NCBI RefSeq assembly: GCF_003945235.1
Contig: NZ_RSDW01000001.1
Location: 3,450,001-3,482,000 of the forward strand
Reading direction: 5' to 3'
DNA from: Edaphobacter aggregans
GTDB taxonomy: Bacteria > Acidobacteriota > Terriglobia > Terriglobales > Acidobacteriaceae
Length of the DNA: 32,000 nucleotides
Numbering within the stretch: position 1 is the first letter of the stretch; every line of letters begins with the position of its first letter. The notes under the pieces are model-generated. The model worked only from the letters and a program-made list of their open reading frames with translations, did no database searches and had not been told where the DNA came from. Shown piece after piece: positions 12,931 through 12,972 of the stretch. The position numbers and the translations under genes were made by a program.

Positions 12931-12972
12931 TCTCTCTCTCTCTCTCTCTCTCTCTCTCTCTCTCTCTCTCTC
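12931..12972. repeat. Perfect (TC)21 dinucleotide microsatellite (42 bp; (GA)21 on the other strand), intergenic
   Basis: Read directly: 'cacaTCTCTC...TCTCgatg'. It lies 72 nt after the deacetylase stop (12859) and 64 nt before the ATG of the FemAB-like gene (13036). Confidence 0.98.

Follow-up and report, generated by a model that had tools for sequence, protein, structure and literature searches.

A strain-polymorphic (TC)21 microsatellite in an exopolysaccharide-tailoring cassette of Edaphobacter aggregans, probably born at a gene-deletion scar

The window, a stretch of 32,000 nucleotides of the Edaphobacter aggregans genome (contig NZ_RSDW01000001.1, positions 3,450,001 to 3,482,000), harbors an exopolysaccharide-tailoring cassette in which a CE4 polysaccharide deacetylase gene is followed by the gene of a 365-aa FemAB-like transferase and by GT2 glycosyltransferase and GNAT-like genes (Table 1). 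The spacer between the deacetylase and FemAB-like genes (12860-13035, 176 nt) holds a perfect (TC)21 tract of 42 nt, described by TRF with period 2, 21.0 copies and 100% matches. Counted from the last base of the deacetylase stop codon (12859), the tract begins 72 nt downstream, and its end is 64 nt short of the ATG at 13036, so that the original prediction of an uninterrupted 42-bp repeat at these distances is confirmed from the sequence and by TRF. The further statement that this is the only sizeable spacer is correct inside the block 9013-15826, but comparable or larger gaps are found elsewhere in the cluster, at 15826-16294 and 17940-18120. Every gene around the tract lies on the plus strand.

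Table 1. Features of the spacer and of the neighbouring genes, in window coordinates
Feature	Coordinates	Strand	Remarks
CE4 polysaccharide deacetylase gene, upstream of the tract	11795-12859	+	Pfam PF01522; 354-aa product identical to the deposited annotation
Left part of the spacer, after the deacetylase stop	12860-12930	+	71 nt; polymorphic, 7 variable sites among four haplotypes
Remnant of the deleted ACP-like gene (ribosome-binding site and first codons)	12876-12899	+	start ATG now ACG
(TC)21 perfect dinucleotide microsatellite	12931-12972	+	pyrimidine strand is the sense strand of the gene cluster
Right part of the spacer, putative FemAB-like leader	12973-13035	+	63 nt; 5 variable sites among four haplotypes
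Block near-identical in the window strain and L113	13024-15750	+	1 SNP; flanks about 2.5% diverged
FemAB-like / GNAT-fold transferase gene, downstream of the tract	13036-14133	+	Pfam PF02388, PF13480; NCBIfam
GT2 glycosyltransferase and GNAT-like genes, conserved cassette	14096-15826	+	

Bacteria rarely have long perfect dinucleotide repeats, and most studies of them concern host-adapted pathogens. The claim that this one is highly unusual is borne out for the host genome, since in a census of its complete sequence (6,152,256 bases) (TC)21 is by far the longest dinucleotide repeat, the next four having 6 units, and is also the longest homopurine/homopyrimidine run. The number of such runs expected by chance is effectively zero. 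The genome also carries heptanucleotide arrays of the ACCTGAT / GATACCT / CCGATAC type at several sites (G000:C1:2559741-2559824, and also 370577, 1158856, 969954, 1488409 and 5891375), with up to 12 perfect copies embedded in degenerate arrays of that unit. The polysaccharide locus lies within a low-GC region of about 110 kb (G000:C1, about 3,410,000-3,520,000; 48-55% GC versus 57.2% for the genome), and the 1.4-kb stretch 12300-13700 has no DNA match in 24 genomes of the same genus; both features are consistent with a horizontally exchanged island.

The deacetylase frame closes before the tract, at its stop codon (12857-12859), and the FemAB-like ORF cannot extend upstream of its ATG because of an in-frame TAA at 13027-13029; therefore, the tract is intergenic. 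It thus differs from repeats that lie inside an ORF and switch translation by shifting the frame, while its 21 uninterrupted units are long enough for the slipped-strand mispairing on which leader-type contingency repeats depend. The FemAB-like start codon has a position common to orthologues, and no canonical Shine-Dalgarno sequence occurs in the right spacer, in agreement with what had been noted for this ATG. Two further frames were considered and rejected as genes: the ATG at 12919, 12 nt upstream of the tract, opens a frame of 29 codons only (MVHT(SL)7DASPNVYIGST, then stop), and the 107-aa ORF at 12702-13025 is an out-of-frame overlap with the deacetylase gene.

The cassette, with the order GT2, AsnB-type amidotransferase, CE4, FemAB-like, GT2 and GNAT, is widespread in Acidobacteriota, and 80 orthologous loci were fetched for the comparison with related genomes that had been proposed. 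None of these 80 loci from other Acidobacteriota has a dinucleotide run of at least 5 units upstream of the FemAB-like gene, and by this comparison the tract is specific to the host species. At most loci the gap between the CE4 and FemAB-like genes spans about 2.1-2.5 kb and contains a small ACP-like gene (78-85 aa) and a gene for an FkbH-like/HAD protein of ~600-640 aa. Both nearest outgroups, whose FemAB-like proteins are 77-78% identical, keep this pair, which is lost in the window species and at about 14 other loci among the 80; at L026 and L046 apparently only the ACP-like gene is kept. The FkbH-like gene was not found anywhere in the host genome. The region was compared between window 12859-13036 and the corresponding stretches of three other loci (L003:3555-6001, L121:1152-3501 and L123:1115-3501). 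The variable pair implies, as far as gene content can tell, a glyceryl/acyl-carrier step that would feed the FemAB-like transferase and would be dispensed with here.

A trace of the lost genes survives in the left spacer. A 24-nt stretch, aligned with MAFFT, matches the start of the ACP-like gene of outgroup L123 at 21 positions (score 28, against a maximum of 23 in 1000 shuffles, p<0.001; against L121, p is about 0.016), and it ends 32 nt left of the tract. On the right side only the last ~15 nt before the ATG resemble orthologous leaders. A weak and tentative likeness between the right spacer and the outgroup FkbH-FemAB spacers is seen in a DNA-level alignment (TCTCGATGC / TCTGGATGC). The vestige on the left and the short orthologue-like stretch on the right place the deletion junction between about 12900 and 13015, and (TC)21 lies inside this junction interval of the lost ACP-like/FkbH-like pair.

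An exact-protein look-up with the FemAB-like protein of the window gave no match, and alleles from other strains were reached through a scan of metagenome contigs for a unique left-flank pattern and through 90% protein clusters. The scan led to a 158-kb metagenome contig (L113) that is 97.5% identical to the window over 6.6 kb, and the clusters to further contigs of the same species, whose FemAB-like proteins are 98% identical. A second long allele of 42 nt, (TC)2TG(TC)18, occupies the same site with identical sequence in three assemblies (L113, L118 and L119), whereas 14-nt alleles are present in L114/L115 (TCTCTCTCCCTCTA) and in L116/L117 (TCTCTCTCTATCTC), each of them 1-2 substitutions away from (TC)7. 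A further JGI contig has a spacer of 148 nt, which also indicates the short form. Tract length is therefore strain-polymorphic within the species (7 or 21 units), with 14 and 42 nt as the lengths seen among four haplotypes and no intermediates. The FemAB-like gene is intact in all strains regardless of tract length. It had been proposed that conservation of exactly 21 units among related strains would speak against a variable tract; in these four haplotypes the two long alleles do agree at 21 units, but the others have 14 nt.

The same data dispose of the suggestion that the repeat could be an assembly or sequencing artefact, absent from the organism. All that favours it is the rarity of such repeats in bacteria, while in a second strain three metagenome assemblies made independently show a repeat of 42 nt at this position, marked by a point substitution of its own, and a Logan contig (k=31) begins inside the long tract, as expected of a true repeat longer than k. 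The artefact is thus ruled out, its probability being practically nil. The strains with the short allele share the deletion, which places the deletion first and the expansion afterwards, and a species-specific tract at a deletion scar favours a recent and possibly neutral origin.

The spacers around the two long alleles have diverged, with differences at 5 of 71 sites on the left and 5 of 63 on the right (about 7-8%), yet both tracts measure exactly 42 nt. Informative SNPs on both flanks (12874 on one side, 13003 and 13020 on the other) pair the window with L116/L117, and L113 with L114, while tract length pairs the window with L113 and L116 with L114. This incongruence may have arisen in two ways. 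Two or more changes in length could have ended at the same values, in which case selection for 42 nt would be hinted at; alternatively, conversion over no more than 85 nt (12905-12989) could have carried the long tract from one haplotype to another. With four haplotypes, the pattern is suggestive but not decisive. Further downstream, the near-identical block that spans the FemAB-like, GT2 and GNAT genes in the window strain and L113 has the appearance of a recent recombination tract, the left edge of which lies 51-208 nt downstream of the TC tract; between the same two sequences five SNPs are clustered in 12990-13023. From about 16000 divergence becomes sharp, with 250 nt containing 62 differences and the BLAST alignment breaking off at 16406, and this onset of divergence coincides with the start of a gene for a secreted beta-helix protein (16294-17940). 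Such a pattern is best read, at the level of sequence, as mosaic recombination with a hypervariable gene.

Three roles had been proposed for the repeat, as a slipped-strand tract that phase-varies the decoration genes, as a triplex-forming element, and as a (CU)n RNA that sequesters Shine-Dalgarno sequences. A scan of 12500-13400 found no sigma-70-like consensus promoter, whether spanning the tract, adjoining it or elsewhere in that region, and the only terminator-like hairpin in it is a weak one inside the FemAB-like gene, the spacer having none. A -10-like TATATT at 12991-12996, 18 nt downstream of the tract, is present in all four haplotypes; its -35 element would fall within the tract, so that changes in length would leave the -35/-10 spacing unaltered. 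When the leader was folded with 4-28 units, the predicted mean unpaired probability of the ribosome-binding window was 0.53 throughout, and at 21 units the tract itself is predicted to be 80% unpaired, the first five bases alone pairing with an upstream GGAGA. The constant accessibility and the open tract argue against the sequestration role. The spacer RNA has no match in Rfam; a sub-threshold match to a snoRNA family (20 bits, versus a gathering score of 100) was caused by low complexity and was discarded. For the phase-variation role, the real and strain-variable length fits a slipped-strand origin, but no frame is affected, no sigma-70-like promoter lies at the tract and the two long alleles are equal at 21 units in spite of their diverged spacers. 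MutS is intact in the host genome; loops of 2 nt would therefore be expected to undergo repair, and hypermutability of the tract does not necessarily follow. An attempt to derive the direction of replication from GC skew was abandoned, as the cumulative skew was asymmetric and uninformative. The potential to adopt H-DNA follows from the sequence, a perfect 42-bp mirror-symmetric (TC)n.(GA)n tract.

The model that we lean towards, as fairly probable, proposes that (TC)21 is a young, slippage-born, strain-polymorphic and species-specific non-coding microsatellite at a gene-deletion scar, probably co-transcribed, and that it is not a classical ON/OFF switch. The ACP-like and FkbH-like pair, about 2.3 kb, would have been deleted between the CE4 deacetylase and the FemAB-like gene, leaving a junction that began as a short TC-rich stretch, presumably (TC)7, of which the 14-nt form of other strains would be a decayed remnant. 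In some strains this stretch would then have expanded to 42 nt, presumably by replication slippage. As part of a spacer in a co-directional cluster, the tract would probably be co-transcribed and form an unstructured (UC)21 linker in the mRNA, and its length polymorphism would be neutral or, at the most, would adjust FemAB-like/GT2/GNAT expression quantitatively to a modest degree. As no frame is altered and no consensus promoter or terminator is present in the spacer, an ON/OFF phase-variation switch is not indicated. Several observations nevertheless count against this reading. The diverged haplotypes match exactly at 42 nt and both short alleles measure exactly 14 nt, which is unexpected of a freely drifting neutral microsatellite; a perfect 21-unit run is unusual in a genome proficient in mismatch repair and could reflect selection; and the -10-like TATATT may belong to an internal promoter.

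These same observations are the starting point of a regulatory explanation, rather unlikely in our judgement, in which the tract would act as a length-dependent cis-regulator, a rheostat or two-state element where 7 versus 21 units sets the expression of the FemAB-like, GT2 and GNAT genes. It would lie in the 5' leader of these genes or a short way upstream of an internal promoter. Its effect could come from the geometry of the DNA or from a triplex on the upstream side of the -10, or else from the pyrimidine-rich leader of the RNA, and the 42-nt form would have been kept by selection and spread between haplotypes by recombination. The identical length in two diverged haplotypes, incongruent with the SNPs on both flanks, accords with such a history, as does the fact that the long-tract strains share the FemAB-GT2-GNAT block with a single SNP in about 2.7 kb between flanks that are 2.5% diverged. 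The retention of TATATT in 4 of 4 haplotypes, the near-perfect purity of the repeat, the clustering of TC tracts of other Terriglobales at gene 5' ends on the sense strand, and the precedents of vlhA (PMC6258824), the sabA T-tract (PMC4081817) and the hmw1A 5'-UTR repeat (PMC12721329) also argue for it. Set against this are the failure of the scan to find a consensus promoter, a -35/-10 spacing that is independent of length because any -35 would lie inside the tract, an RNA structure that is predicted to be unaffected, and a sample of four haplotypes only. In addition, the orthologous cassettes at 80 loci work without the tract, and no downstream gene is disrupted in the short-allele strains of this species. 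A more specific form of the argument, a selected and length-constrained two-state switch or rheostat (7 versus 21 units) whose advantageous 42-nt state spread by recombination, is more doubtful still, and we regard it as unlikely.

It could also be argued that the tract matters mainly as a structure, forming H-DNA under negative supercoiling and acting as a fragile, recombinogenic or polymerase-pausing site in a variable polysaccharide island, so that it would promote rearrangements around it rather than regulate genes. In favour of this are a perfect 42-bp mirror repeat that is the longest R/Y tract of the genome, its location at a deletion junction in a low-GC island, a recombination breakpoint 51-208 nt downstream and five SNPs bunched nearby between two long-tract strains. 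However, the deletion is common to strains that have only the 14-nt seed, and hence preceded the long tract, and the short allele lacks the length that a stable triplex requires. It is also uncertain whether triplexes form in living bacteria. This structural explanation is considered very unlikely, and the young microsatellite at a deletion scar remains the reading that we retain.

Known contingency loci offer partial parallels. In Mycoplasma gallisepticum, a (GAA)n repeat lies about 40 nt upstream of the transcription start of the vlhA genes; 12 repeats only are considered the active state, and the genes that have 12 repeats show a narrower repeat-number distribution (PMC6258824). The (TC)21 tract is likewise a non-coding homopurine-homopyrimidine repeat placed tens of bases upstream of a surface-variation gene, and the single favoured length of vlhA has a counterpart in the 21 units found in both long haplotypes. 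However, vlhA has mapped starts, conserved flanks and many paralogues and strains, whereas here there is one locus with non-conserved flanks, a dinucleotide unit and an unmapped start site, within an operon-like cluster of a free-living soil bacterium. The T-tract of the Helicobacter pylori sabA promoter forms a continuous series of lengths, T5 to T22, in 51 strains of a species that is said to have no mismatch repair (PMC4081817). Both are intergenic pyrimidine tracts of strain-variable length; that of sabA adjoins the promoter and tunes output rather than frame, while the present one has two lengths in four haplotypes, an intact MutS in its genome and no consensus promoter in the scan of its surroundings. 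Expression of Haemophilus influenzae hmw1A depends on the number of (ATCTTTC)n repeats in its 5'-UTR, which base-pair with a G-rich arm, and the long hairpin that results is cleaved by RNase III (PMC12721329). The likeness here is a simple repeat in the leader, albeit putative, of a downstream gene, and the difference lies in (UC)21 being predicted to stay about 80% unpaired, with pairing to GGAGA limited to its first five bases. Finally, sabA and other outer-membrane protein genes of H. pylori carry CT-dinucleotide repeats in the 5' coding region (PMC4081817), with the same unit and the same slipped-strand origin, but the tract of the window lies outside any ORF and cannot shift a frame.

Tracts of (TC)12 or longer occur in 11 of 400 other genomes of the order and in 0 of 61 genomes of the same genus. 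At six Terriglobales loci (L084 in G304, L088 in G042, L089 in G171, L090 in G083, L093 in G063 and L094 in G040) a (TC)14-20 tract, at about 1486-1540 of each, starts 9-47 nt after an ATG, within the codons for the signal peptide of what is probably a secreted protein, and is read there as (Ser-Leu)n. One of them is in frame (601 aa), whereas at the other five, ORFs of 187-524 aa open only once a single unit is removed; L088/L090 (35% identity) and L093/L094 are homologous pairs. No Pfam family was found for the secreted proteins with 5' TC tracts, and no same-species variants of the G304 protein are on record; proteins homologous to the in-frame one begin with ordinary signal peptides that lack the repeat. 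These six tracts, unlike that of the window, share the gene layout of the H. pylori CT repeats (PMC4081817), which is that of translational phase variation, and by this analogy, TC tracts may act as switches in Terriglobales. In a genome of a sister family (L002, G027:C34), an intergenic (TC)11 at 1502-1524 follows a 442-aa ORF and precedes a 119-aa ORF on the same strand by 41 nt, a position that resembles that of the window tract. Judged by titles and abstracts, a full-text literature search brought up no paper on SSR-based phase variation in Acidobacteria.

A genuine strain-polymorphic repeat in an exopolysaccharide locus of a soil acidobacterium, traceable to a deletion scar, provides a clear example of the birth of a microsatellite. 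If its length is neutral, the tract would be a useful hypervariable strain marker, as well as a caution against assigning a function to every repeat. Should it instead prove to be a selected switch, it would be, as far as the literature search showed, the first regulatory microsatellite described in Acidobacteria, and if its length tunes the decoration genes, contingency-type regulation would extend to the surface-polysaccharide chemistry of free-living soil bacteria.
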